Positions 7,866 through 58,452 of a stretch of 64,000 nt of DNA are shown here, in pieces; within the stretch, counting starts at the first letter, position 1, and every line of letters begins with the position of its first letter. The notes under the pieces were generated by a model. The model saw only the letters and a list, made by a program, of their open reading frames with translations, ran no database searches and was not told where the DNA came from. Location: assembly GCA_035289425.1 (NCBI GenBank), contig DATDXC010000032.1, forward strand, positions 22,550 through 86,549, read 5' to 3'. This DNA comes from Candidatus Nanoarchaeia archaeon (GTDB taxonomy: Archaea; Nanobdellota; Nanobdellia; Woesearchaeales; DATDXC01). Both the position numbers and the translations under genes were made by a program.

Positions 7866-10070
7866 ATGGGGGTAGATATTATGAAGAAGATATTAGGCTT
7901 AGGGGTATTGTGTGTTTTAATAATAAGTGCTATTGCGGTTAGTGTTTCGGCGGCGAAACCTGCACCAGCTGTTTATGTTATTAATGAAGCAATAAAAACT
8001 TCAGATGATTTAATAGAAAGACCCGGTAATATTGTTTTGAATGATGAGGAGATTGTGTCGTCTGTTTTTGTACGAAACCCCGTCTTGTTGAAGGGCGTTA
8101 GGACATTTGTTGTTTACCGAGGAGAAGGTTTTCAGGGAAATGTAGAATGCACTCTAGATAAAGGAAATAAAAATCTGCCAAAGGATTATAAACGGGAATT
8201 GAAAAGGTTTCAATTGCGTACTGATGGTTGGTTTGATTGTATTTTGCCTATCACAGAGGATATGCACGGTACTCTATCTTTAACATATTACGCTATCAAT
8301 AAGCGGTACGGATGGGGTCAAGACACCGGATTGAGTTTCTTTGCAAACCCTCATCTTGAATTAGGCATCCAAGGAGACCTTAGTTTTGACAATGTACAAG
8401 CAGGCTCTGTTGCATATTCTAATCCAATCCTATTGAATAATAAAGCAGAAACAGGATCCGGAGCAGTGTATGATCTTTATGTTTCTGGTACTGACTTTAC
8501 TGATATCGAAAGCAGAAGTGCAAAATGTCCTGTAGCTAATCATTTGAAGTTAAGTCAGGATTTGAGATATAATTTAGGAGAGGGTGCTGAGTCAGGACAA
8601 ACTTATACTACTGCTTGTGATATTGACAGTTGGATTAATGGTCAAGAGGGAGAAGACAATCATGACCATTTCTGCTATTATGCAGTTAATGGGCCTTATT
8701 TTACTCCAAAGTCTCCAAATAGCGATGCAGAAGGGTATAAACCTATTGTATATGGGACTGAGATCAGCAAGGATTTTAAGAATGATGCAGAGATTCTAAA
8801 CGATGATGGGAATAAGCTTGGTGTTGGCCAGGAGATGGCCTTGACATTTAAATTGGGATTGCCAGAGCCTTGTAGTGGTGATTTTAATGTAGGGCAGATC
8901 AAGTTCTGGGCTGCGCTTGCTGATAATAGAAGTGAGGTAAGTGATGTTGTTATTTCGACTTCAACAACACCTGCAATAATTCCTGATGAACATAAACCTG
9001 AGATATGGAAGTGTGATAGCAGGATTATTGCTGATGATATTGTTTACGAAGGAAGAGGAAATGAACCTCCTGAAAGGATGAACAACTATGCATTTGAAGG
9101 TGAAAAGGTGGTCCTAGATTACTTGGTCTTTGACAGAAATGGGATTGAAGAGATCCAGGATGTATTTGTTACATTCGGATCAAATTTAGGTGCGGGTAAC
9201 GACATCGAGGTTAATTGCGTAGAATCATCTGGTCCAAGTACCATTCCGGTTAGCTGCAATGCACGTATTGGTGAAGAACCTATTACCGAATTTAATAAGG
9301 ACACAATGGCATACGATACATGTGTGCTTACTGTAGAGACTCCTGATTCAATGCATGGTGAGTATTATTCTATTGGTAAGGTTATAAGTGTAGATGGTTA
9401 TACTCAGGAAGAAGATTTAGAATATTACTTCTTTAATCCTGAAGTAAAGCTTGATGTTGAGGGAGACCTATCTTTTGACAACATAATACCTGGCGAAGTA
9501 GCTTACTCTGAGGTTATAACCGTAAAAAATGGCGCGGAGCAAGGTTCTGGAGTCTTGCAGGAAGTGTTCATCAGTGGAACAGATTTCTATGATGCAACAA
9601 ACTCTGGTGCAAGATGTCCTGAATATAACCATCTTAAATTGAGCCAGGATGTGAGAAGTACTACATTGTTAGGACCTGAACTGGAATCCGGACCCTCAAC
9701 AACTACTGTATGCGATATTGAATCATGGATACATGACCCTGTTGAAGTGAGCAAGGATAACCATGATCACTTCTGTTATTATGCAGTAAGTGGAGCATAC
9801 GACACTGCTAACGGAGATGGTGTTGATGATAATGCAGATAATGAAGGGTATAGGCCGATTGTCTATGGCAATGTGTTTACCCGAGATTTTTACAATGATG
9901 CAGAAATCATAAGCAATGATCTTCTAACAATTGGTAGTACCGATTATGATGCAGGCAACGTGTTGCCCCCTGAAGGAAAAATGGACATAAAATTCAAGTT
10001 TGGTGTTCCAGATCCTTGTATGGGAGATTTCTCCACAGGAGAAATATTCTTTTGGGGACAGCCTATTTAA
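7866..10070 (+). CDS. secreted/surface protein with internal tandem domain duplication
   Basis: Has an N-terminal signal/TM segment. Two ~200-aa internal repeats are found at aa ~163-355 and ~525-734. They share the 'GDLSFDN', 'SGTDF', 'ARCP', 'NHLKLSQD' and 'NHDHFCYYAV' motifs. Confidence 0.6.
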   Translation: MGVDIMKKILGLGVLCVLIISAIAVSVSAAKPAPAVYVINEAIKTSDDLIERPGNIVLNDEEIVSSVFVRNPVLLKGVRTFVVYRGEGFQGNVECTLDKGNKNLPKDYKRELKRFQLRTDGWFDCILPITEDMHGTLSLTYYAINKRYGWGQDTGLSFFANPHLELGIQGDLSFDNVQAGSVAYSNPILLNNKAETGSGAVYDLYVSGTDFTDIESRSAKCPVANHLKLSQDLRYNLGEGAESGQTYTTACDIDSWINGQEGEDNHDHFCYYAVNGPYFTPKSPNSDAEGYKPIVYGTEISKDFKNDAEILNDDGNKLGVGQEMALTFKLGLPEPCSGDFNVGQIKFWAALADNRSEVSDVVISTSTTPAIIPDEHKPEIWKCDSRIIADDIVYEGRGNEPPERMNNYAFEGEKVVLDYLVFDRNGIEEIQDVFVTFGSNLGAGNDIEVNCVESSGPSTIPVSCNARIGEEPITEFNKDTMAYDTCVLTVETPDSMHGEYYSIGKVISVDGYTQEEDLEYYFFNPEVKLDVEGDLSFDNIIPGEVAYSEVITVKNGAEQGSGVLQEVFISGTDFYDATNSGARCPEYNHLKLSQDVRSTTLLGPELESGPSTTTVCDIESWIHDPVEVSKDNHDHFCYYAVSGAYDTANGDGVDDNADNEGYRPIVYGNVFTRDFYNDAEIISNDLLTIGSTDYDAGNVLPPEGKMDIKFKFGVPDPCMGDFSTGEIFFWGQPI

Positions 10071-10586: not shown

Positions 10587-10838
10587 ATGCACATCCGTGA
10601 TTTTACCAAAATGAACAAGGAATTACTGCCCAAGACTGATTTTCAATTTAGAGTTCCCCAGCTGAAAAACTTTGATTATGGGTTTGAAGTGGCAAGGGAT
10701 TTTGATTTTCTGAAGCCGCAGATGAATATTATCACTTTCTTTGATCAGGTTAAAGCAGATTGGAGAGAAATCGAAAGATTTGAATTCAAGCATATGGATA
10801 TTGAGAAAACGTTCAATAACCTGATTAGGAAGATCTAG
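10587..10838 (+). CDS. hypothetical protein
   Basis: An 83-aa ORF with no recognisable motif. Confidence 0.3.
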   Translation: MHIRDFTKMNKELLPKTDFQFRVPQLKNFDYGFEVARDFDFLKPQMNIITFFDQVKADWREIERFEFKHMDIEKTFNNLIRKI

Positions 10839-11326
10839 TGCATATCCTTAATCTTTTCTACACCATTTAGTTTGATAATCTCTTCAGCAATTTCTTTCGG
10901 AACCAGATAACGCCAATCCTTATCTTTGATTATTCTCTCCCGTATCTCAGTTGCATTAATATTGGGTATTAGCTCTATTTTTCTCACTTGTATACCTTTT
11001 TCAGCAAACAATTTATCAGTGAAATCATTTCCGGTATACACAATATCAAAGTGAGGCACAATGCTCCGTACATGTTCTACCCAGTTCTGGTCATCGTGGA
11101 TATCGGGAACAGGAACTATAGTATAGGCAGAGATATGATTCGCTTTCAGTGCTGCGGTAATCATATCTTTTCTCTCCATATAGCTGAATGGGTTTTCAGG
11201 GGTGCCTGATTCTTGTGATGAACCGATGGCTATGACCACCTTTTTGCATTCTTTGCGCGCCAACTGTACATCATGAAGGTGTGCCTTGTGGAATGGCTGG
11301 AATCTTCCGATAAAGAGCGCAATCAT
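10835..11326 (-). CDS. nadM: nicotinamide-nucleotide adenylyltransferase (archaeal type)
   Basis: The 'IGRFQPFHKAH' (T/H)xGH motif and its overall length match archaeal NMNAT. Confidence 0.85.
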   Translation of the reverse strand: MIALFIGRFQPFHKAHLHDVQLARKECKKVVIAIGSSQESGTPENPFSYMERKDMITAALKANHISAYTIVPVPDIHDDQNWVEHVRSIVPHFDIVYTGNDFTDKLFAEKGIQVRKIELIPNINATEIRERIIKDKDWRYLVPKEIAEEIIKLNGVEKIKDMH

Positions 11327-12024
11327 TTTATGGTTGGTACTGGTTTTGTTTTATGCCTATTAGCTGCTATAATCTTGAGAATCCGATCACTTTTCTTTCT
11401 TCTTCCCTGCAGCATAGCATCTATGGTTTTATAGGTCTCGCCGATTTCTGACTCATCAGTATGGCCAGGGAACAACTCTGCAGACGGTTCTTTTGTCAGG
11501 AAGTTCTCAGGCAGCCTTAGATAACGGGCCATATTCCTCACCTGAGTCTTGTACAGGCTGCCTATCACCTCAATATCAACAGCGCCATCACCATACTTAG
11601 TAAAGTACCCTAAAGCCATCTCAGTCCTATTCGATGTGCCAATGACCAATGCTTTATGGGAATTGGCGTAGTTGTACAATATGACTGCCCTGATGCGCGC
11701 TTTGGTATTTATGACAGCAGCCTTATTTTGAACCCATGGAAGCTGCTTCATTGGCGTGAGATACTGGTTTATGGGGATTATATGGTATTTTACGTTAAGA
11801 ATCTTGCAGAGATCGATAGCATCTAAGATGTTTGATTTCTTAGTAAGGCCTTTCTGGGGCATCAATAATGCAGTTACATTTTTGCTCCTCAAAGCATCTG
11901 CTGTTAACCTGAGGGACAGCGCAGAATCTATGCCTCCTGACAGGCCTATGACTGCCTTTTTCATTCCTGATTTTAGGAAATAAGCCCTAATTCCGTGCAC
12001 TAATCTAAGATATCTCTTTTCCAC
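11323..12024 (-). CDS. nadE: NH3-dependent NAD+ synthetase
   Basis: Has the 'GLSGGIDSA' PP-loop. It overlaps nadM by 4 nt, suggesting a nadE-nadM operon. Confidence 0.8.
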   Translation of the reverse strand: MEKRYLRLVHGIRAYFLKSGMKKAVIGLSGGIDSALSLRLTADALRSKNVTALLMPQKGLTKKSNILDAIDLCKILNVKYHIIPINQYLTPMKQLPWVQNKAAVINTKARIRAVILYNYANSHKALVIGTSNRTEMALGYFTKYGDGAVDIEVIGSLYKTQVRNMARYLRLPENFLTKEPSAELFPGHTDESEIGETYKTIDAMLQGRRKKSDRILKIIAANRHKTKPVPTIK

Positions 12025-12077: not shown

Positions 12078-12344
12078 ATGAATTGCTCTCATTGCAATAA
12101 GGAAGATCGCTGGCTGGAAGTGATAGGCAAGGACTTTATCTGCAAGAAATGCCTCAACAAGAACAAAATTATGGGGCAGGTGTACCGAACCCACATGAAT
12201 ACCTTCCAGTTTCTGATACGAAAAATTAATCCTGCAGATTATGCTGCATTTCTTGCCATAACCAGGCTGCAGGTTGAAAAATTTGCTGACCTTAAGAAAC
12301 AAGGAATATCGCTTAAAACGACCAATGTGGTAGAGTTGAAATAG
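12078..12344 (+). CDS. small zinc-ribbon hypothetical protein
   Basis: Contains 'CSHCN...CKKC' Cys pairs. Confidence 0.3.
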   Translation: MNCSHCNKEDRWLEVIGKDFICKKCLNKNKIMGQVYRTHMNTFQFLIRKINPADYAAFLAITRLQVEKFADLKKQGISLKTTNVVELK

Positions 12345-12375: not shown

Positions 12376-14475
12376 ATGTGTGGCATAGTGGGCATATTTG
12401 GCAAGAAAGACGCTGCTGCTGATATAGTGAGGGGCCTTTCTGTTTTAAAAGAGCGCGGCAGAGATGGGGTCGGTATTTTTAATGACAGGGAGATACATAT
12501 CGGAAAAAAGGTGGAGGATCTTAGGGGCATTTCAGGAAATAATATAATTGCGCACGCACTTCATTCAGTGGTAAGCATAGTGCCACAACCCATCAAGAAA
12601 AAAGGAGTGCTTGTTTCCAACTGCGAGATCTATAATTGGCAGGAATTGAAGGAAAGGTATGGATTGCAGTCGGGGAATGACTCTGAACTTCTGATTGATC
12701 TGATTGAAGCCAAAGGTCTCTTAGAAGCAGTCAAGATCCTTGATGGAGATTATGCATTTGCGTACTGGCACAAAGATGAAATCTATGTTGTAAGAGATAT
12801 AGTGGGAGTAAAACCTGTTTGGTTCTCGCTTGAGAAAGGATTTGCTTTTGCATCCGAAAGGAAGGCATTAGAGCAGATAGGATATGCAAACATAGAGGAG
12901 CTAAATCCACGGACTATTGTGTGTTATAACCTAAAGAAAGGCTCTTTCACCAGGATCAGACGGGAATTTTTCAGGATAGGAAAGATGCGTACAGATAATG
13001 TAATTGAAAAAACAGAGGAATTGTTGCTTGCTGCTGTTAAAAAACGAATCCCAGACAAAAAATTAGGCATCTTATTCTCAGGTGGCATTGATTCTACAAT
13101 GCTGGCATTGCTCTGCAAAAAGCTCGGGAAGGAGTTTATCTGCTATACTGCTGTTCTGGAAGAAAGGGGTATGGGAGATGCCCCGGATTTAGTGTATGCA
13201 AAAAAAGTCGCTGCAGAACTTGGATTCAATCTTAAGATAAAAAAACTAGACCTAAAGGAAACAGAGCAGCTGCTTGCTACAGTCGTGCCCTTGATAGAAG
13301 ATTCTAATGTAGTTAAGGTGGGAGTGGCGCTTCCTTTCTATGCAGCTTGCGAACAAGCCCAGAAAGATGGCATCAAGGTCATGTTTTCTGGATTGGGGAG
13401 TGAAGAGATATTCGCAGGCTATGAACGACACAAAAAATCCCAGGACATCAACAAAGAATGCCTTTCAGGATTGCTCAAGATGTATGAAAGGGATTTGTAC
13501 CGGGATGATGTGGTTACGATGCATAACAATATTGAATTAAGAGTACCTTTCCTTGACAAAGAGCTTATCGCCTATGCATTGTCTATACCCGGCGACATGA
13601 AAATCAGCGGAGATAGAAATAAGATTGTATTACGAGAAATTGCCAAGAGATGCGGCATTCCTGATGAGTATGCTGAACGCAAGAAAAAAGCAGCGCAATA
13701 TGGGAGCAAATTTGACAGAGCTTTAGAAAAGCTTGCACATCGAGCACATGCTTCAAAATCAAGATACTTGCAAAGATTCTACCAACGACCTAACAACCGG
13801 TTGGGTGTTCTCTGGAGCACTGGCAAAGATAGCGCATTAGCTACCTGGATTATGGTAAAGCAAAATTATGAAATCGGCTGTCTGATATCTTTAAAAAGCA
13901 GCAATCCTGATTCTTTTATGTTCCATACGCCCACTATTGACCTCGCACCGTTGCAAGCAGAATCCATGGGTGTTCCACTGGTCATTCAGGAAACGAGGGG
14001 GGAGAAGGAGAAGGAGCTTGCTGATCTTAAGGCAGCAATTCTCAAAGCAAAGAACACCTACCATATCCAAGGCATTGTAACAGGGGCGTTGTATTCTAAC
14101 TATCAAAGGGAGCGGATTGAAAAGATATGTGATTCGTTAGAATTAAAGATTTTTGCTCCATTATGGCATGTGGATCAAGAACAAGAACTGCATACCCTTC
14201 TCACCGAAGGATTTTCAGCCATAATTACGAAAGTAGCTGCTGCAGGACTTAGTGAAAAGTGGCTCGGCAGGGAAATTGATGAAAAAGCTATCTTAGAGCT
14301 AGCGCAACTGCATACAAAATATAGGATCAATGTTGCTGGAGAAGGAGGGGAAACAGAATCTTTGGTGTTGAAATGCCCTCTGTTCTCTAAGAAGCTCAAA
14401 ATTGTGGAAGCAGAAAAGGTCATGGATACCGAGTATAGCGGTTTTCTCCGGATCAAAAAAGCTATTTTAATTTAG
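12376..14475 (+). CDS. asparagine synthase (glutamine-hydrolysing)-like protein fused to a C-terminal DUF71/MJ0570-type (diphthine-ammonia ligase-like) PP-loop domain
   Basis: Has an N-terminal 'MCGIVGIFG' class-II glutamine amidotransferase domain and a central asparagine-synthase domain with an 'SGGIDST' PP-loop. Its C-terminal ~240 aa carry 'LWSTGKDS' and 'GEGGETESL', typical of the DUF71 ATP-binding domain. Confidence 0.7.
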   Translation: MCGIVGIFGKKDAAADIVRGLSVLKERGRDGVGIFNDREIHIGKKVEDLRGISGNNIIAHALHSVVSIVPQPIKKKGVLVSNCEIYNWQELKERYGLQSGNDSELLIDLIEAKGLLEAVKILDGDYAFAYWHKDEIYVVRDIVGVKPVWFSLEKGFAFASERKALEQIGYANIEELNPRTIVCYNLKKGSFTRIRREFFRIGKMRTDNVIEKTEELLLAAVKKRIPDKKLGILFSGGIDSTMLALLCKKLGKEFICYTAVLEERGMGDAPDLVYAKKVAAELGFNLKIKKLDLKETEQLLATVVPLIEDSNVVKVGVALPFYAACEQAQKDGIKVMFSGLGSEEIFAGYERHKKSQDINKECLSGLLKMYERDLYRDDVVTMHNNIELRVPFLDKELIAYALSIPGDMKISGDRNKIVLREIAKRCGIPDEYAERKKKAAQYGSKFDRALEKLAHRAHASKSRYLQRFYQRPNNRLGVLWSTGKDSALATWIMVKQNYEIGCLISLKSSNPDSFMFHTPTIDLAPLQAESMGVPLVIQETRGEKEKELADLKAAILKAKNTYHIQGIVTGALYSNYQRERIEKICDSLELKIFAPLWHVDQEQELHTLLTEGFSAIITKVAAAGLSEKWLGREIDEKAILELAQLHTKYRINVAGEGGETESLVLKCPLFSKKLKIVEAEKVMDTEYSGFLRIKKAILI

Positions 14476-14866
14476 ACGATTTGTATGTGTCTTCTTTGTA
14501 AGGTTTCATGCGATAAATGTGCGGATGTAAGCCCCTTTGCCGCAGCTGCTCCTCCAGATTATAGGTAAATGATTTTTGGTCGTAGCCAAGGCATATGACT
14601 TCCGGATCTGTTTCCTCAACAATCTTGTATTTGTCCCCATCATAGCCAAGCACTGCCTTGTCTACAAAAGGCACCGCGCTCACCTGCTGGAGACGTTGGG
14701 ATTCATCGTATTTAGGTAGTTTGCCTTTTACCTCCCTGATGGTCTGGTCCCTGGCAACCACCACAACTAGGTAGTCTCCCAGTTTCTTTGCCTCCCGCAG
14801 ATAATAAATGTGTCCTGGATGGAGCACATCAAAGCTACCGAAGCAGAGCACTTTTTTCATGAGCAT
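14462..14866 (-). CDS. ribL: FAD synthetase (RibL-type cytidylyltransferase family)
   Basis: 'GSFDVLHPGH' and 'VVVARD', plus its length and layout, match archaeal RibL. Confidence 0.7.
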   Translation of the reverse strand: MLMKKVLCFGSFDVLHPGHIYYLREAKKLGDYLVVVVARDQTIREVKGKLPKYDESQRLQQVSAVPFVDKAVLGYDGDKYKIVEETDPEVICLGYDQKSFTYNLEEQLRQRGLHPHIYRMKPYKEDTYKSSKLK

Positions 14867-14896: not shown

Positions 14897-15667
14897 CTAA
14901 TATTTCATATTCCAGGTAGCTGTTCCATATTTTTTCCTGCTTAATGTTTCCGCAGCTGCCATCTCATCACCAGTCAAGGAGCTTTTCTGAATATCCATAT
15001 TTAATGCAGTCCTGAACCCATCAGCCATAGCATCCCTTACTTCTGCATAATCTGTTTTTTTGTTCCGCTCTGTTGCTATGGAAGTCATGCGTTTCTTGAC
15101 TTCTTTGGCCATCTGAGTGGAGTAGTTCTTAAATAATGAACAATAAGTATCAATATCTGCCTCAATTAAGATTGCTCCATGCTGCAGCAGCTTTCCCTGA
15201 ATTCGCTTTTGAGCGCTTCCCAGAATCTTTTTTCCATTTACTAGTATCTCATACCACGATGGTTCCTGGAAGCAGACTGCGGACTTATGCCCCTTAGTAA
15301 CTTCCTCATTCATGCGGGGGTCTAACCCAAGATTCTTGAGGCCCTGCAACAAGCCCTTGCTGATAACTTTGTAGGATTCGACAATGGAGGCAGGCATCTG
15401 GGATTCATCAATGATGAAAGAATACGTTATTTCAACATCATGCAGGACTGCATTTCCGCCAGTTACCCTTCTCACAAAATCTATATTGTTGCTTCTGAGA
15501 GCATCAAAATTGAACTGTTCCTTTGACTGGAAGTATCCAATGCTTAAAGCAGCCGGCTTCCATGCATAGAACCTAAGGACAGGCATGCTAGAAGATAAAA
15601 GGGCTTCATCAATTGCCATATTCATAAAAGCATCGTGAATGCCAGTATCTAACAACCTAACTTTCAT
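14897..15667 (-). CDS. lplA: lipoate-protein ligase A
   Basis: Has an LplA catalytic domain with 'KK..GSAQ', conserved Lys in 'GKKILGSAQKR'. The track ORF extends to 15745; the start was trimmed to Met27, giving an 11-nt overlap with lipA. Confidence 0.75.
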   Translation of the reverse strand: MKVRLLDTGIHDAFMNMAIDEALLSSSMPVLRFYAWKPAALSIGYFQSKEQFNFDALRSNNIDFVRRVTGGNAVLHDVEITYSFIIDESQMPASIVESYKVISKGLLQGLKNLGLDPRMNEEVTKGHKSAVCFQEPSWYEILVNGKKILGSAQKRIQGKLLQHGAILIEADIDTYCSLFKNYSTQMAKEVKKRMTSIATERNKKTDYAEVRDAMADGFRTALNMDIQKSSLTGDEMAAAETLSRKKYGTATWNMKY

Positions 15668-16496
15668 GGACTGCATCCTCAGCATGATATGAAGACCGGA
15701 CCAATGGCCCTGATTCGACATGGGAAAATCCCAGCTCATAGCCAATCCTCTTGAATTCGCTGAATTCTTCAGGAGTGTAATATTTTAAGACAGGTGTATG
15801 ATCTTTTGATGGCTGCAGATATTGCCCTAAAGTCAGGATATCCACTTTAGCGAACCTCAATGCCCGCATGGTCTTGATGACTTCTTTGTCAATTTCACCG
15901 AGGCCGAGCATGATGCTTGATTTGGTTGCCTGTTTGGGATTCATCTCTTTTATATTCTTCAGGAACTGAAGGGATTGATTATAGGTATACCCTGGACGCA
16001 TGGTCGGGAATAATCTTTCGACAGTCTCGATATTGTGGGCAAAAACATCTGGTTCAGCTGCTAAAATAGATTTAATGCTGTCTATGTTACCTCTAAAATC
16101 TGGAGTGAGGACCTCAACCTTTGCCTGCGCAATCTTTTTTATGGCAGTTATTGTTTTCTTGAACATACGGGCACCTCCATCTTGGAGGTCATCCCTGGTA
16201 ACAGAGGTTATAACAGCGTATCTAATCCCCATCTCTTTTATGATGTTTGCTACCTTTTCTGGTTCATGAGGGTCTACTTTCAATGGGATGCCATGCTTGA
16301 CATCGCAATAAGGGCAATTCCTAGTGCAATAATCTCCCAATATCAGAAATGTGGCTGTACCTCTGCCCCAGCATTCTGCCAGATTAGGGCACTTGGCCTC
16401 TTCGCAGATTGTGTGAGTTGAACCAGTTACTAAGGATTTAAGCTTTACATACGATCCCCCCAAAGGAATCTTCACTTTAAGCCAGTCTGGTTTCAT
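15657..16496 (-). CDS. lipA: lipoyl synthase
   Basis: Carries the radical-SAM 'CTRNCPYC' cluster and an upstream 'CEEAKCPNLAEC' cluster. Confidence 0.85.
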   Translation of the reverse strand: MKPDWLKVKIPLGGSYVKLKSLVTGSTHTICEEAKCPNLAECWGRGTATFLILGDYCTRNCPYCDVKHGIPLKVDPHEPEKVANIIKEMGIRYAVITSVTRDDLQDGGARMFKKTITAIKKIAQAKVEVLTPDFRGNIDSIKSILAAEPDVFAHNIETVERLFPTMRPGYTYNQSLQFLKNIKEMNPKQATKSSIMLGLGEIDKEVIKTMRALRFAKVDILTLGQYLQPSKDHTPVLKYYTPEEFSEFKRIGYELGFSHVESGPLVRSSYHAEDAVHES

Positions 16497-17948: not shown

Positions 17949-19283
17949 TTATGTGGTTTCAAAGTACTTTTCGAGTTCCCACGCAGTCACCTGCAACCTG
18001 AATTCATCAAATTCTGCCTTTTTAGCTGCCACATAAATCGGATAGGTGTGTTTGCCCAACGCTTCCTGGATGACCGGATCCTTCTTAAGCTCAAGGATAG
18101 CCTCCCCTAAAGAAGAAGGCAGGGTGTCTATCTTGTAGCTTGCCAGCTTTACATCATCAAATTCATACACATCCTCTTCAACAGGCGCGGGCGGCACCAT
18201 CTTGTGCTTTATGCCGTCAAGTCCCGCCTTTAACATAACCGCAAAGGTTAAGTAAGGATTGCTGCTTGGATCAGGGCATCTCAATTCGCAACGGGTTGCC
18301 TTTTCTCTGCCTGGACTGTAGCGCGGGATCCTTATCAGCGCTGATCTGTTCCTTTGCGCCCAGCAGATGTAAACCGGAGCCTCATACCCGGGAACAAGGC
18401 GTTTGTAAGAGTTGACTGTTGGAGCCACAACCGCAGCCATTGATTTGACATGGTGCAATTGGCCGGCAATGAAGCTTTTCGCCAATGATGTTAACTTGTA
18501 TTTGTCATTTGCATCGTAGAAAGCATTCTGACCATTCTTGTCAAACAGGCTCTGGTGGACGTGCATACCGGAACCGTTCTCTCCATAAATGGGTTTGGGC
18601 ATGAATGTTGCATATAATCCATGTTTTTGCGAAATGCTCTTCACCACATGCTTGAATGTCAGTGCCCTATCAGCCTGTATCAATGCGTTGCCATATTTGA
18701 AATCGATCTCATGCTGACCAGGCGCAACCTCATGGTGGGACATCTCAACTTCCAGGCCCATGGTTTCAATTGCCTTGATGATATCATTCCTGACTTCAAC
18801 TGCCAAATCCATTGGTGAGAAATCAAAGTATCCTGCTTTGTCATGGGTTACCGGGACCAAAGCTCCATTTTCCCGTGGCTTGAACAAGAAGAATTCCAGT
18901 TCGGGGCCCACATTATACTCATAACCTGCATTCTCAGCTTCTTTCATCACTTTCTTTAGTATGAAACGGGGATCACCCTCAAATGGTTCCCCATCGGGCA
19001 TATACACATCACAGATCAGCCGGGCTGTGGACTGTTCCCCGGTCTCCCAAGGAAGAACCGCATACGTCTCCGGATCTGGCTTCAGAAACATGTCTGACTC
19101 TGCAATCCGTGTAAACCCTTCAATGGAGCTTCCGTCGAACCATGTACCTTTATCCAATGACTCGGGCAGCTTCTCAACCGGAATCGTGACAGATTTTATC
19201 GAACCGTGTATGTCGGTAAACTGCAGCTGCACAAATTTAACATTGTCTTGTTTTGATTTTTCCAATACCTGTTTTGCATCCAT
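17949..19283 (-). CDS. glnA: glutamine synthetase
   Basis: Conserved GS catalytic-domain motifs across 444 aa. Confidence 0.9.
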   Translation of the reverse strand: MDAKQVLEKSKQDNVKFVQLQFTDIHGSIKSVTIPVEKLPESLDKGTWFDGSSIEGFTRIAESDMFLKPDPETYAVLPWETGEQSTARLICDVYMPDGEPFEGDPRFILKKVMKEAENAGYEYNVGPELEFFLFKPRENGALVPVTHDKAGYFDFSPMDLAVEVRNDIIKAIETMGLEVEMSHHEVAPGQHEIDFKYGNALIQADRALTFKHVVKSISQKHGLYATFMPKPIYGENGSGMHVHQSLFDKNGQNAFYDANDKYKLTSLAKSFIAGQLHHVKSMAAVVAPTVNSYKRLVPGYEAPVYICWAQRNRSALIRIPRYSPGREKATRCELRCPDPSSNPYLTFAVMLKAGLDGIKHKMVPPAPVEEDVYEFDDVKLASYKIDTLPSSLGEAILELKKDPVIQEALGKHTYPIYVAAKKAEFDEFRLQVTAWELEKYFETT

Positions 19284-19374
19284 CTAAATCACCACCTTAC
19301 TAATTTTATTCGACTGCGAGAGCTCTGTGCTTTTGCCACCCTTGATTTTTTTATTTGATTAAGTGTAAACAAAA

Positions 19375-19779
19375 CTATTTTTTTCCTATTCCTTGCTGTA
19401 GCTCTTTCTTCCTTTTTTCAGAAATGAATTGACTCATACCACCTATAGCATCTGGTCCACGGATTCCGGTCCGAATCCTAATGCATTCTGACAGGGGCAG
19501 TACAAAAATCTTCCCATCTCCCAATTCCTTAGTTCGAGCGCCTTTTATAATGGCATTGATAGTTGGTTCGACAAAATCTTCATTTACTGCTATCTCGACT
19601 CGTATTTTAGGCATCAAGGTAACTTCGTCAGTTGTTGCACGAAGCACTTCAATAAATCCTTTTTGCTCGCCGCAACCTCTGACCCTACTCACTGACATCC
19701 GGGATATATCTGATTTGAATAACTCTTTCTTTACTTCCCTGAAACGTTCTGGCTTGACATAGGCAATAATCAGTTTCAT
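19375..19779 (-). CDS. glnK: nitrogen regulatory protein P-II (GlnK-like)
   Basis: Has 'GDGKIFV' and 'RIRTG' P-II signatures and lies adjacent to amt. Confidence 0.85.
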   Translation of the reverse strand: MKLIIAYVKPERFREVKKELFKSDISRMSVSRVRGCGEQKGFIEVLRATTDEVTLMPKIRVEIAVNEDFVEPTINAIIKGARTKELGDGKIFVLPLSECIRIRTGIRGPDAIGGMSQFISEKRKKELQQGIGKK

Positions 19780-19788
19780 TTTCTCCTC

Positions 19789-21105
19789 TTAAGAAGGGAT
19801 ATCAATATCGGGATAAGCCTCTTCTCCATGCTGTGTTAAGTCTAAACCGAGCACTTCCTCTTTCTTTGTTACACGCAATTTAATAACAAAGTCAATGGCC
19901 TTAAATATGATTATAGTTGCTAAGAATGCATAAGCTGCTGTCGCAATAACTGCGATCAGTTGGATGATGACCAACATTGGATTTCCAGCTATTAGACCGT
20001 TGCCCCCTGCGGCATTAATTGCTATCTCAGCAAATACTCCGGTCAAGATCGCTCCGGTAATGCCGCCAATGCCATGGCAGGCAAACACATCTAATGCGTC
20101 ATCGAGTTTCGTCCTTGTCTTAATAAAAACAACTGCAGTATAACATGCTATACCTGCAATTACCCCAATGATTATTGAGGAGGCCACACTTACGTAGCCT
20201 GAAGCAGGTGTTATCGCAACCAAACCACACACAGCGCCAGTAACTATACCCATACTGCTTGGTTTTTTATTGTGAATCCAACTTACTGCCATCCACGACA
20301 AAGCGGCTGCTGCTGCTGCTGTGTTAGTAACAACGAAGGCTTGTGCCGCCAACCCATTCGCTCCTAACGCAGAGCCTGCGTTAAAACCAAACCAGCCAAA
20401 CCATAGGAACGCTGCTCCAAAAATGGTCATGGTGATGTCGTGCGGCCTTATTTCACTGCCTGCATTCAATTCAACTCGCTTGCCGATCAACAATGCTACT
20501 GCGAGAGCTGAAACGCCGGCAGTAATGTGGACCACAGTTCCACCCGCAAAATCCAACATACCTAAACTGCGAATCCACCCACCTACACCCCACACCCAGT
20601 GTGCTACCGGAGCATACACAAATATTGACCACGCTATGATAAACAGTATGAATGCAGCAAACTTCATTCTGTCTGCAAAAGCACCTATAATCAAAGCTGG
20701 TGTGATGATTGCAAACATTGCCTGAAATATCATAAATGCCAGCGCAGGAATGGTTGAACTATAATTCGGATCAGCTTCCATTCCAACACCTCTAAGGCCA
20801 ACATGGGCAAGATTTCCAAGAAAACCAGACCCATTATCTGGGCCGAAGGCTAAGGTGTAACCAATCAGTACCCATATAATGCTAACGAGGGCAATAATGA
20901 TAAAACTCTGAGTTAAAATGGCAAGCACATTTTTTTTCCGTACCATGCCCCCATAAAAAAAACCTAATGCAGGAGTCATCATCATAACCAAGGCAGCTGA
21001 GAGTAATACCCATGCAGTATCACCTGCGCTTATTTCCGTTTCCGCAGCCACGGTTGGCATTAAAGACACAATGCAAAAAAATAAGATTGATAATTTCGTT
21101 TTCAT
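19789..21105 (-). CDS. amt: ammonium transporter
   Basis: A multi-TM Amt/MEP family protein with a signal peptide. Confidence 0.9.
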   Translation of the reverse strand: MKTKLSILFFCIVSLMPTVAAETEISAGDTAWVLLSAALVMMMTPALGFFYGGMVRKKNVLAILTQSFIIIALVSIIWVLIGYTLAFGPDNGSGFLGNLAHVGLRGVGMEADPNYSSTIPALAFMIFQAMFAIITPALIIGAFADRMKFAAFILFIIAWSIFVYAPVAHWVWGVGGWIRSLGMLDFAGGTVVHITAGVSALAVALLIGKRVELNAGSEIRPHDITMTIFGAAFLWFGWFGFNAGSALGANGLAAQAFVVTNTAAAAAALSWMAVSWIHNKKPSSMGIVTGAVCGLVAITPASGYVSVASSIIIGVIAGIACYTAVVFIKTRTKLDDALDVFACHGIGGITGAILTGVFAEIAINAAGGNGLIAGNPMLVIIQLIAVIATAAYAFLATIIIFKAIDFVIKLRVTKKEEVLGLDLTQHGEEAYPDIDIPS

Positions 21106-35455: not shown

Positions 35456-35564
35456 AGCGGGGTAGGGCAGTCAGGAGTGCCCGGGGGGCTCATAACGCTC
35501 ACTGTCGAAGCGGCAGTCGCTGTTCGAAACCCCCAGGTCGGTGGTTCAAATCCACTCCCCGCTA
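35456..35564 (+). tRNA. tRNA-Met (anticodon CAT) with ~34-nt intron at the canonical 37/38 position; initiator-like features
   Basis: Acceptor AGCGGGG/CCCCGCT gives an A1:U72 pair. D-arm is GGGC/GCCC. The anticodon stem is GGGGG/CCCCC, split by an intron at ~35495-35528, with loop CTCATAA. T-arm is GGTGG-TTCAAAT-CCACT. A1:U72 and three G:C pairs in the anticodon stem suggest an initiator. Confidence 0.8.
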
Positions 35565-56688: not shown

Positions 56689-58452
56689 ATGAAATCAAAA
56701 GAGCTTATCGGGAAGTATATTGAATTTTTTAAGACAAAAAAACATCAGGAAATCCCTAATGCCAGTCTTATCCCTACCAATGATCCCACAGTATTGTTTA
56801 CCACCGCAGGCATGCATCCATTGGTCCCTTATTTATTGGGACAGCCCCATCCTAAGGGCAAACGAATTGTAGATGTGCAGAAATGTATCAGGACAGGAGA
56901 CATAGATGAGGTGGGCGATACTACGCATCATACTTTTTTTGAGATGTTGGGAAATTGGAGCCTGGGCGATTATTTCAAGGAAGAAGCTATCCATTGGTCA
57001 TATGAATTATTGGTCCATGCCCTGAAGATCCCTGCAGAAAGGCTTGCCATAAGCTGTTTTGGGGGAGATAGAGATGCACCAAAGGATGAGGAATCTGCCC
57101 ATATCTGGGAATCATTGGGCATACCCTCAAGCAGGATTGCGTTTTTGCCTAAGAGAGATAATTGGTGGGGTCCTGCAGGCGCCATAGGGCCATGCGGTCC
57201 TGATACTGAGATGTTCTATTGGACTGGTCCAGAACCATTTCCTCAGAAGTTTGATCCTGCCGATAAAAAATGGGTTGAGATATGGAATGATGTGTTCATG
57301 CAATACCATAAACAGAAAGATGGCAGCTACATAGAATTGAAGCAGAAGAATGTGGATACTGGCATGGGTGTTGAAAGGACTTTAGCAGTTCTGAATGCGC
57401 TTAAAGACAATTACCAGACTGATCTGTTTTGGCCAATCATTGAGAAGATTGCTGAGGTATCGGGGAAGAAGTATGAGGGCAATGAGAAAGCATTCAGGGT
57501 TATAGCGGATCATCTTAAGGCAGCGGTCTTCATCTTATCTGATGATAAGGGCGTCAAGCCAAGCAATGTAGAGCATGGGTATGTTCTCCGAAGATTGATC
57601 AGAAGGGCCATCAGATATGGAAGGATGCTCGGTATTACTGCCGCATTTACCGTAAAAGTTGCTTCGGCTGTATTGCCCATCTATCCTGAGTATGAAGAAT
57701 TAAAGAGGAACAAGAAGTTTATTTTTGAAGAGCTTGAAGCTGAAGAAAGAAGGTTTACTGAAACGTTAGAGAAGGGCATGAAGAAATTTAATGCCCTACT
57801 TGCTGAAAGGAAGAAAGTCATTTCAGGGGCTGAGGCTTTCCTGCTTTTCCAAAGTTATGGGTTTCCGATCGAGATGACTACTGAACTTGCAGGAGAGAAT
57901 GGGGTTTCGGTAGATGTTGATGGATTTGAGGCAGAATACAAGAATCACCAGGATTTGAGCAGGACAACTTCTGCCGGTGTGTTTAAATCAGGGCTTGCTG
58001 ATAATTCTGAAGCGACTACAAAGCTACATACCTCTACGCACCTATTGAATGAAGCACTGCGGCAGATAGTGAAGCAGGATATTAGGCAGAAAGGCTCGAA
58101 TATCAATCCTGAAAGGTTACGCTTTGATTTTAATTATGGCGATAAACTAAATGCAGACCAGATATCAAAAGTAGAGAAATGGGTCAATGACCAGATAGCA
58201 AAGGGATTGAAAGTTACCCGAAAAGAGATGCCTTTGAAGGAAGCGCTTAGATCAGGAGTTCAGGCTGAATTTGGGGAAAAGTATCCGGATATTGTCTCAG
58301 TGTACACCATAGGTGATGAACAACATCCAATAAGCCGAGAAATCTGCACTGGGCCGCATGTTAAGAATACTAAGGAGATAGGGCATTTTAAGATTGTGAA
58401 AGAACAGAGTTCTGCTGCCGGCGTGAGAAGGATTAAGGCAGTTATTGAATGA
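56689..58452 (+). CDS. alaS: alanine--tRNA ligase, truncated bacterial-type catalytic core (no C-terminal editing/C-Ala domains)
   Basis: Has an N-terminal bacterial AlaRS core, 'PTNDPTVLFTTAGM', 'HHTFFEMLGNWSLGDYFK' and 'GPCGPDTE', within a protein of only 587 aa. Confidence 0.85.
   Translation: MKSKELIGKYIEFFKTKKHQEIPNASLIPTNDPTVLFTTAGMHPLVPYLLGQPHPKGKRIVDVQKCIRTGDIDEVGDTTHHTFFEMLGNWSLGDYFKEEAIHWSYELLVHALKIPAERLAISCFGGDRDAPKDEESAHIWESLGIPSSRIAFLPKRDNWWGPAGAIGPCGPDTEMFYWTGPEPFPQKFDPADKKWVEIWNDVFMQYHKQKDGSYIELKQKNVDTGMGVERTLAVLNALKDNYQTDLFWPIIEKIAEVSGKKYEGNEKAFRVIADHLKAAVFILSDDKGVKPSNVEHGYVLRRLIRRAIRYGRMLGITAAFTVKVASAVLPIYPEYEELKRNKKFIFEELEAEERRFTETLEKGMKKFNALLAERKKVISGAEAFLLFQSYGFPIEMTTELAGENGVSVDVDGFEAEYKNHQDLSRTTSAGVFKSGLADNSEATTKLHTSTHLLNEALRQIVKQDIRQKGSNINPERLRFDFNYGDKLNADQISKVEKWVNDQIAKGLKVTRKEMPLKEALRSGVQAEFGEKYPDIVSVYTIGDEQHPISREICTGPHVKNTKEIGHFKIVKEQSSAAGVRRIKAVIE

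Follow-up and report, generated by a model that had tools for sequence, protein, structure and literature searches.

Fusions of an AsnB-like module to a DUF71 domain were reported in 2012 from Methanohalophilus mahii, Methanosalsum zhilinae and Ca. Nanosalinarum (de Crecy-Lagard et al. 2012, Biol Direct 7:32, PMC3541065). In that work both DUF71 and the Asn-synthase domain were proposed to receive NH3 from the class-II glutamine amidotransferase (GAT-II) domain, and the reviewer L. Aravind remarked that it was unclear which of the PP-loop domains receives the ammonia. Here we analyse a gene of this type at positions 12376 to 14475 of a 64-kb stretch of archaeal DNA (contig DATDXC010000032.1), which is called the window below. 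Its product has the domain order of the 2012 fusions (GAT-II, Asn_synthase PP-loop, DUF71), and the same functional proposal applies to it. Fusions from nanohaloarchaea are direct, full-length homologues of the window protein (L032 with 45% identity); the lineage differs, since the window protein is Woesearchaeota-like.

The fusion is real, common, published and annotated, and the window protein is a further member of this known family. The first-pass annotation was aware of no characterisation of the fusion. This holds for its biochemistry, as no biochemical work on the fusion or on proteins of the MJ1116/MJ1056 type was found in the literature searched, but not for its description, which dates from 2012. 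New here are the non-canonical nature of the AsnB-like half, relatives that lack the GAT domain and are nevertheless linked to Dph6, and stand-alone AsnB-like genes without Dph6 nearby. We give about even weight, against all other readings together, to the proposal that the gene encodes the Dph6 of a Woesearchaeota-like DPANN archaeon in the form of a three-domain enzyme equipped with a nitrogen supply of its own.

The fusion gene, its Dph6 domain and its family

The gene is an uninterrupted open reading frame (ORF) of 699 codons on the forward strand, with an ATG at 12376 and a stop codon at 14473-14475. Its features are as follows.

12376..14475, + strand: whole gene, fusion of GAT-II, AsnB-like PP-loop and Dph6 domains, 699 aa (ORF, domain profiles, homologues)
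12379..12960, + strand: class-II (N-terminal nucleophile, Ntn) glutamine-amidotransferase-type domain, residues 2 to ~195 (Pfam GATase_7/GATase_6, residue mapping to 1CT9 and 6GQ3)
12379-12381, + strand: codon of Cys1
12559..12561, + strand: Leu62, where characterised enzymes have the Arg for binding of the glutamine alpha-carboxylate (alignment)
12988..13776, + strand: AsnB-type synthetase (PP-loop adenylating) domain, residues ~205-467 (Pfam Asn_synthase, Foldseek to 1CT9)
13078..13098, + strand: first PP-loop, SGGIDST, residues 235-241
13387..13407, + strand: SGLGSEE motif, residues 338-344, corresponding to SGEGSDE in E. coli and S362-E368 in human (alignment)
13393-13395, + strand: codon of Leu340, within SGLGSEE
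13777..13797, + strand: short linker from the AsnB-like module to Dph6, residues 468-474, QRPNNRL region (model confidence)
13798..14472, + strand: Dph6 (DUF71, diphthine--ammonia ligase) domain, residues 475-699 (PF01902, TIGR03679, PDB matches)
13816..13833, + strand: second PP-loop, STGKDS, residues 481-486
14338..14361, + strand: GEGGETES, residues 655-662, the Dph6-specific EGGE-x-E188 signature

The motifs from which the first-pass annotation had read the architecture were all located, namely the N-terminal MCGIVG, both PP-loops and GEGGE at residues 655-659. The three Pfam domains it had named were found as well, and Pfam and NCBIfam matches agree with the domain order it had claimed. 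GATase_7 matches residues 71-166 (E 1.9e-18) and lies together with GATase_6 within the first ~170 residues, the Asn_synthase match starts at residue 213 (E 6.1e-50), and Diphthami_syn_2 (PF01902) covers residues 477-696, corresponding to profile positions 4-217 of 219 (E 2.8e-66, 223.6 bits). For the archaeal Dph6 model of NCBIfam (TIGR03679, Dph6_archaeal) the protein scores 276.1 bits against a cut-off of 197.3. The opposite assignment, in which the C-terminus would be the ordinary C-terminal region of AsnB, fails, because the last 225 residues match the DUF71 structures of Pyrococcus furiosus PF0828 (3RJZ, E 9e-52) and P. horikoshii PH1257 (2D13, E 7e-51). In the AlphaFold2 model residues 475-699 superpose on PF0828 (3RK1) and PH1257 (2D13) with a TM score of 0.94 and root-mean-square deviations (rmsd) of 1.2-1.4 Å.

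With the stand-alone archaeal Dph6 proteins (PF0828, 3RJZ/3RK0/3RK1; PH1257, 2D13) the domain shares the fold, the PP-loop, the EGGE-x-E188 signature and the residues of the predicted interface with elongation factor 2 (EF-2), at 36-44% identity in the Foldseek alignments. It differs from them in being the C-terminal third of a 699-aa protein, in having STGKDS instead of SGGKDS, and in a Phe at the position of Tyr45. In PF0828 the PP-loop reads S12-G-G-K-D-S17, so that Gly13 corresponds to Thr here, and the family consensus is SsGKDS. His517 aligns with His48 of PF0828. Dph6 is defined by the motif EGGE/D-x-E188, whereas the DUF71 subfamily for B12 salvage has ENGEF/YH188 instead, and the predicted EF-2 interface of Dph6 comprises S44, Y45, E78, Y103, Q104, A149, E183 and E186 (PMC3541065). 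Seven of these eight interface residues are identical to PF0828; the exception is again Tyr45, Tyr being the family consensus. As every testable Dph6 signature is carried by the C-terminal domain, the assignment of the protein to Dph6, made on conserved residues, is well supported. A second DUF71/Dph6 or AsnB homologue, and with it a stand-alone Dph6, was not found within the window.

The nearest relative of the window protein is 65% identical. In a word-indexed search 119 further cluster representatives covered 96-100% of the query at 52-65% identity with an identical set of Pfam domains; many of these are named 'diphthine--ammonia ligase', the name used by NCBI, and come from Woesearchaeota or Nanoarchaeota. 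A nanohaloarchaeal member used as query retrieved 119 more full-length fusions, including those of the cultivated Ca. Nanohalococcus occultus and Ca. Nanohalovita haloferacivicina. In total, full-length homologues form more than 160 protein clusters from Woesearchaeota, Nanohaloarchaeota and Micrarchaeota. A scan of one genome per species of the Genome Taxonomy Database (GTDB) gave 43 related loci, 36 of which encode the full fusion. These 36 are labelled Woesearchaeota, Nanoarchaeota, Nanohaloarchaea or 'archaeon', with several metagenome-assembled genomes under the unconfirmed label 'uncultured Methanosarcinales'. At one Micrarchaeota locus the fusion is cut off by the contig end. For more divergent fusions the cluster names mostly gave little taxonomic information.

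To collect more distant relatives, residues 1-465 were run with HMMER against 1.84 billion representatives, which returned 764 clusters below 1e-30. The best 150 of these 764 clusters, the close family and nine ORFs from the loci made up a sample of 279 sequences with the following architectures (AsnSyn denotes the AsnB-type synthetase domain).

GAT, AsnSyn and Dph6: 170 of 279
GAT and AsnSyn: 70 of 279, some of which are truncated fusions (the P0123 cluster includes a 685-aa member)
AsnSyn only, about 260-310 aa: 28 of 279
AsnSyn and Dph6, no GAT: 4 of 279
GAT part only, unclassified: 7 of 279

Genes were counted as stand-alone only if they were complete inside their contigs. Among the Dph6-fused relatives, 170 of 174 (98%) retain the GAT domain.

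An artificial origin of the fusion, be it a chimeric contig, a frameshift or a gene-call error joining adjacent genes, has next to no probability. The reading frame is uninterrupted, the same architecture recurs in the 36 species genomes and the more than 160 protein clusters, and the junction is modelled with confidence. Nothing at the window gene points to such an error, which is excluded because so many independent assemblies contain this ORF. Only P0141 (1005 aa) looks like a merged gene call: here an SMC_N/AAA domain precedes the whole three-domain fusion, most likely through a gene-calling merger of two genes.

Catalytic residues of the AsnB-like module

Residues 1 to ~465 of the model superpose on E. 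coli AsnB (1CT9) with a target-normalised TM score of 0.78-0.79 and an rmsd of 2.9-3.4 Å (Foldseek). The two N-terminal domains also superpose on human ASNS (6GQ3), and over both references the two-domain AsnB fold gives TM scores of 0.75-0.79. For a comparison at the residue level, 120 family members were aligned with E. coli AsnB, a subfamily profile was matched to 1CT9 and 6GQ3, and key columns were tabulated over the 279 relatives. At an identity of ~25%, the window protein has in common with AsnB and ASNS the fold, Cys1, Asn74, Glu76, Asp98, the PP-loop, Ser346, Tyr357, Asp384, Arg387 and Lys449 (E. coli numbering). It differs from them by Leu for Arg49, Cys for Gly75, Leu for Glu348, Glu for Asp351, and by the absence of the C-terminal ~90 residues. 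The earlier description of this half as AsnB-like therefore stands for fold and family and falls for the catalytic signature, in which the exchanges of Arg49 (Leu62) and Glu348 (Leu340) are conserved in the family.

In the GAT-II domain, Asn82-Cys83-Glu84 correspond to N74-G75-E76 of E. coli AsnB and Asp102 to D98. The equivalents of Cys1, Arg30, Asn74, Glu76 and Asp98 are conserved in more than 96% of the 170 fusions. Cys1 is kept more strictly in fused than in unfused relatives: all 163 fusion sequences with an aligned N-terminus have it, as against at least 6 losses among the unfused ones. The residue mapping shows that the N-terminal domain retains the predicted Ntn nucleophile Cys1, the putative oxyanion Asn and the Asp expected to bind the substrate amino group. 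The position of Gly75 is usually a Cys across the family (Cys83 here); only the backbone NH of this residue is needed.

The glutamine-anchoring Arg (Arg49 in AsnB, Arg48 in human ASNS), which is also present in PurF and GlmS, is replaced by Leu62. Leu occupies this position in 165 of the 170 fusions, as part of a conserved H-x-L-H-S motif (here H-A-L-H-S; canonical H-x-R). Arg48 of human ASNS belongs to a conserved glutamine-recognition network (PMC6748925). The alignments place Lys146 where human ASNS has Arg142, a residue reported to have a role in ammonia transport (PMC11615228).

The glutaminase nucleophile is lost in the unfused P0129, P0186, P0206, P0256 and P0261 and in P0149 and P0182. 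These sequences begin with MW, MV, MG, MS or MT and not with MC, and P0182 has a Dph6 domain without its PP-loop part. They may be degenerate paralogues.

In the synthetase domain the PP-loop is kept together with the equivalents of Asp279, Ser346, Tyr357, Asp384, Arg387 and Lys449. The PP-loop residues S235, G236, G237, D239 and S240 are invariant, and the catalytic Lys449 (human Lys466) is Lys437 here. As far as can be read from the aligned columns, the middle domain is shown to keep the PP-loop as well as the Lys, Asp and Arg of the putative AsnB-type adenylation site. The catalytic Glu348 (human Glu364) is replaced by Leu340, and none of the 279 relatives has a Glu at this position; at the position of Asp351 a Glu is found. 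In human ASNS the variants E364A, E364Q and D367A are inactive even with ammonium (NH4Cl), and Glu364 was called conserved and required (PMC6748925). Since this essential Glu is a Leu here, a standard asparagine synthetase is probably not what the middle domain represents. It lacks a counterpart of the final ~90 residues of canonical E. coli AsnB, and the stand-alone proteins L037-L039 end at the same boundary.

The wider clade of the N-terminal module includes the archaeal 'asparagine synthase-related / DUF7411' proteins (M. aeolicus A6UTH5, Thermococcus), which are 34-40% identical to it and carry no fused Dph6; nor is Dph6 adjacent to those Methanococcus and Thermococcus genes that were examined. 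Distant clade members from Methanococcus aeolicus, Thermococcus, Undinarchaeales and Njordarchaeales carry a Gln at the position of Glu348. Arg49 and Gly75 are kept in the M. aeolicus, Thermococcus and Undinarchaeales clusters, and the Njordarchaeales representative P0215 has a His at the position of Arg49. The comparison is a demonstration that the AsnB-like half fails two defining features of AsnB, and it places this half as a non-canonical predicted member of an uncharacterised archaeal clade. A four-cysteine metal site (Cys83, 256, 325, 362), which is conserved in the close family, was considered and rejected, as the Cys residues are not kept in nanohaloarchaeal, micrarchaeal and stand-alone relatives.

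These residues bear on the possibility that two independent enzymes share one chain, an atypical but working glutamine-dependent asparagine synthetase and an ammonia-dependent Dph6, which would be joined for co-expression only and share no ammonia. In its favour, the score for the asparagine synthase equivalog model TIGR01536 (asn_synth_AEB) lies marginally above the cut-off (279.4 bits against 267.1), the PP-loop and the equivalents of D279, Y357, D384, R387 and K449 are conserved, and stand-alone AsnB-like versions exist. Moreover, 'AsnB' is among the very few amino-acid biosynthesis genes kept by cultivated nanohaloarchaea (PMC10266531), and asparagine synthetase is also kept in other reduced genomes such as Cryptosporidium (PMC12174568). 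However, the equivalent of Glu364, without which the human enzyme does not even use NH4Cl, is missing throughout the sample, the equivalent of Arg49 is missing too, and the score for the AsnB model NF006949 is far below its cut-off (214 against 499). The clade relatives themselves are named only 'putative' asparagine synthetase (Methanococcus, UniRef) or 'asparagine synthase-related/DUF7411' (Thermococcus). Furthermore, if the fused parts had no functional link, one would hardly expect the fusion to last in over 160 lineages and to recur as an operon with a 4-nt overlap. We regard two independent enzymes as an unlikely explanation, which ranks second after a Dph6 with its own nitrogen supply.

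Proposed ammonia supply and the tie between the synthetase domain and Dph6

In the three-domain Dph6 that we favour, Met would be removed and Cys1 would then hydrolyse an amide donor, most likely glutamine. Binding of glutamine would be unusual, the canonical Arg anchor being absent. The released ammonia would enter an interdomain tunnel of the AsnB type, and the Dph6 domain would adenylate the diphthine carboxylate on EF-2 and amidate it to diphthamide with the ammonia supplied in cis. The middle AsnB-like domain could serve as conduit and as a coupler that senses ATP, or else adenylate another carboxylate as a second enzyme.

The supply model of 2012 fits the family because 98% of the fusions keep the GAT domain, always with Cys1 where the N-terminus is aligned, and because a short, rigid linker joins the parts. 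The AlphaFold2 model of all 699 residues has a mean predicted local distance difference test score (pLDDT) of 91.7 and a predicted TM score of 0.86, and low-confidence segments are absent. Across the blocks of residues 461-480 the pLDDT is 87-88. A linker of ~7-9 residues, modelled with confidence, suggests that the arrangement of the domains is fixed. The same supply hypothesis was reached independently from other genomes (PMC3541065), which we count in its favour, as we do Lys146 at the position of human Arg142 and the absence of a second Dph6 or AsnB homologue from the window. Yeast Dph6 has two C-terminal RidA-like domains instead, for which a role as alternative ammonia source was proposed (PMC3541065).

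The supply model is complicated by the absent glutamine anchor, by the hydrophobic residue at the tunnel exit and by the link between AsnSyn and Dph6, which outlasts the loss of the glutaminase. Several observations weigh against a Dph6 fed in cis. As the anchoring Arg is replaced by Leu62, the use of glutamine by the fusion is assumed, and the exchange of the catalytic Glu for Leu340 alters the canonical end-point of the tunnel. A fold search with Foldseek found no structure with all three domains in the PDB, which has no precedent for a single glutaminase that feeds two PP-loop sites. Archaeal Dph6 proteins are typically stand-alone, and yeast Dph6 reportedly works with free ammonium. The remaining points come from the variant architectures. 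The fusions P0251 and P0255 lack the GAT domain and otherwise show the Pfam domains expected of them; the gene of P0255 lies complete within its contig. The gene of P0202, again without GAT, shares 4 nt with the stand-alone Dph6 gene that follows it on a Woesearchaeota contig (L044, L045). Because such GAT-less variants are still fused to or in an operon with Dph6, the link between AsnSyn and Dph6 is independent of the glutaminase. Conversely, no Dph6 is encoded in the 4-10 kb of flanking DNA that was examined around complete GAT plus AsnSyn genes (L037-L039, P0131), and a module found in stand-alone homologues without Dph6 nearby has a function of its own. The GAT-less P0214, P0227 and P0262 have no Dph6 within the 4-8 kb of flank examined.

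Channelling of ammonia from the glutaminase to Dph6, as put forward in the first-pass annotation, is reasonable, but it cannot be the whole reason for the link, as AsnSyn-like domains without GAT are also tied to Dph6. The survival of this tie after GAT loss (P0251, P0255 and the overlapping pair L044/L045) speaks for another explanation, in which the AsnB-like PP-loop domain itself acts in the diphthamide/EF-2 pathway or in another translation-linked amidation. It would adenylate a carboxylate other than that of aspartate or be an obligatory partner of Dph6, and the glutaminase would serve this domain. In the GAT-less proteins the residues of the synthetase site remain conserved, as would suit such a role. 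Furthermore, the changed residues lie where models of ASNS place its contacts to two groups, the alpha-carboxylate of aspartate (reached from Glu364 through a water) and, in inhibitor 1, the protonated amino group (PMC6748925). The AsnB family offers precedents: homologues amidate other carboxylates, e.g. meso-diaminopimelate (meso-DAP) in peptidoglycan (PMC8554201, PMC5485061), or form lactams (1JGT, 1Q15). These non-asparagine enzymes, namely B. subtilis and Listeria AsnB acting on meso-DAP, beta-lactam synthetase, carbapenam synthetase and TsnB9, belong to the same superfamily and fold as the module of the fusion; their active-site residues are altered, and they act on a carboxylate other than that of aspartate. 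Beta-lactam synthetase and CarA, unlike the fusion, presumably lack the glutaminase nucleophile.

The recurrent neighbours of the family are translation and housekeeping genes and can be read in the same direction. A DRG/Obg-like GTPase (MMR_HSR1 plus TGS) is encoded upstream of the fusion in 17 of the 43 loci (e.g. L003:7104-7886) and is found again beside a GAT-less homologue of the AsnSyn-only type, to which it is convergent (L047:4904-6082). Synteny, on the other hand, may only reflect lineage history. Many stand-alone homologues are nowhere near Dph6, and the distant Methanococcus and Thermococcus relatives have unrelated neighbours, with no dph or EF-2 genes in the neighbourhoods of M. 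aeolicus and Thermococcus. Yeast Dph6 alone is said to suffice for the amidation, and we know of no extra carboxylate-activating step in archaeal diphthamide synthesis. A direct role of the AsnB-like domain in this pathway or in a related amidation is accordingly judged improbable. We are equally doubtful about its more specific form, in which the 'AsnB' half would be no asparagine synthetase of any kind and would represent an archaeal AsnB-like PP-loop clade with the catalytic Glu replaced, and in the DPANN branch also the Arg, acting in diphthamide formation or in an EF-2- or translation-linked amidation. Its repeated fusion or translational coupling to Dph6, with or without a glutaminase domain, would then reflect this role. 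If it were true, the archaea of these lineages would make diphthamide with a composite enzyme that has two PP-loop sites.

Genomic surroundings and significance

The fusion gene lies in a housekeeping region; the window also encodes an archaeal nicotinamide mononucleotide (NMN) adenylyltransferase, the PINA ATPase, NreA, and histidyl- and alanyl-tRNA synthetases. Two groups of nitrogen-related genes are close to it. An amt-glnK-glnA cluster (ammonium transporter, P-II protein GlnK, glutamine synthetase; 17949-21105, reverse strand) is located 3.5 kb downstream, and an NH3-type nadE (11323-12024) forms with the NMN adenylyltransferase gene a divergent region just upstream (10835-12024, reverse strand). 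This neighbourhood is suggestive, but it was rejected as evidence, as the adjacency recurs in only one of the 43 related loci.

A gene for a 134-aa cytidylyltransferase-like protein (Pfam CTP_transf_like; 14462-14866, reverse strand) is convergent with the fusion gene, and their 3' ends overlap by 14 nt. This protein may resemble the archaeal FAD synthase RibL. In 12 of the 43 loci a homologue lies immediately downstream of the fusion on the same strand, often overlapping it. Between nadE and the fusion, an 88-aa ORF (12078-12344, forward strand) encodes an N-terminal CxxC...CxxC pattern of zinc-ribbon-like appearance; Pfam gives no match for it, and the related loci contain no homologue.

Some further features of the window were recorded. 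ORFs for an LplA-type lipoate-protein ligase and a lipoyl synthase (14897-16496, reverse strand) overlap by 89 nt as listed, and the start of LplA is probably further downstream than the listed TTG; genes of lipoate metabolism are unexpected in a reduced DPANN-like genome. A predicted secreted protein of 734 aa (7866-10070, forward strand) consists of two similar halves, each with the pattern '...DLSFDN...AYS...GTDF...CP..NHLKLSQD...HDHFCYYAV...'. A third tRNA (35456-35564, forward strand) was found by Rfam and missed by ARAGORN; its length of 109 nt suggests an intron-containing archaeal tRNA. The alanine--tRNA ligase (56689-58452, forward strand) is short with 587 aa and of the PRK01584 type (822 bits over the full length), and the model of the editing protein AlaXM matches its C-terminal part as well.

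Within the window the fusion gene is an ordinary, already annotated housekeeping gene. For annotation in general and for metabolic reconstruction it calls for caution, as the 'asparagine synthase' listed among the few amino-acid biosynthesis genes of DPANN archaea and nanohaloarchaea is missing residues on which canonical enzymes depend. Consequently, asparagine prototrophy should not be inferred from a DPANN gene of this name. Diphthamide on EF-2 is conserved in archaea and eukaryotes, and the nitrogen source of the last step of its synthesis has never been established in archaea. The fusion family is common in DPANN archaea with their minimal genomes, and it is therefore a natural test object for the proposal of 2012 that this nitrogen is ammonia derived from glutamine.

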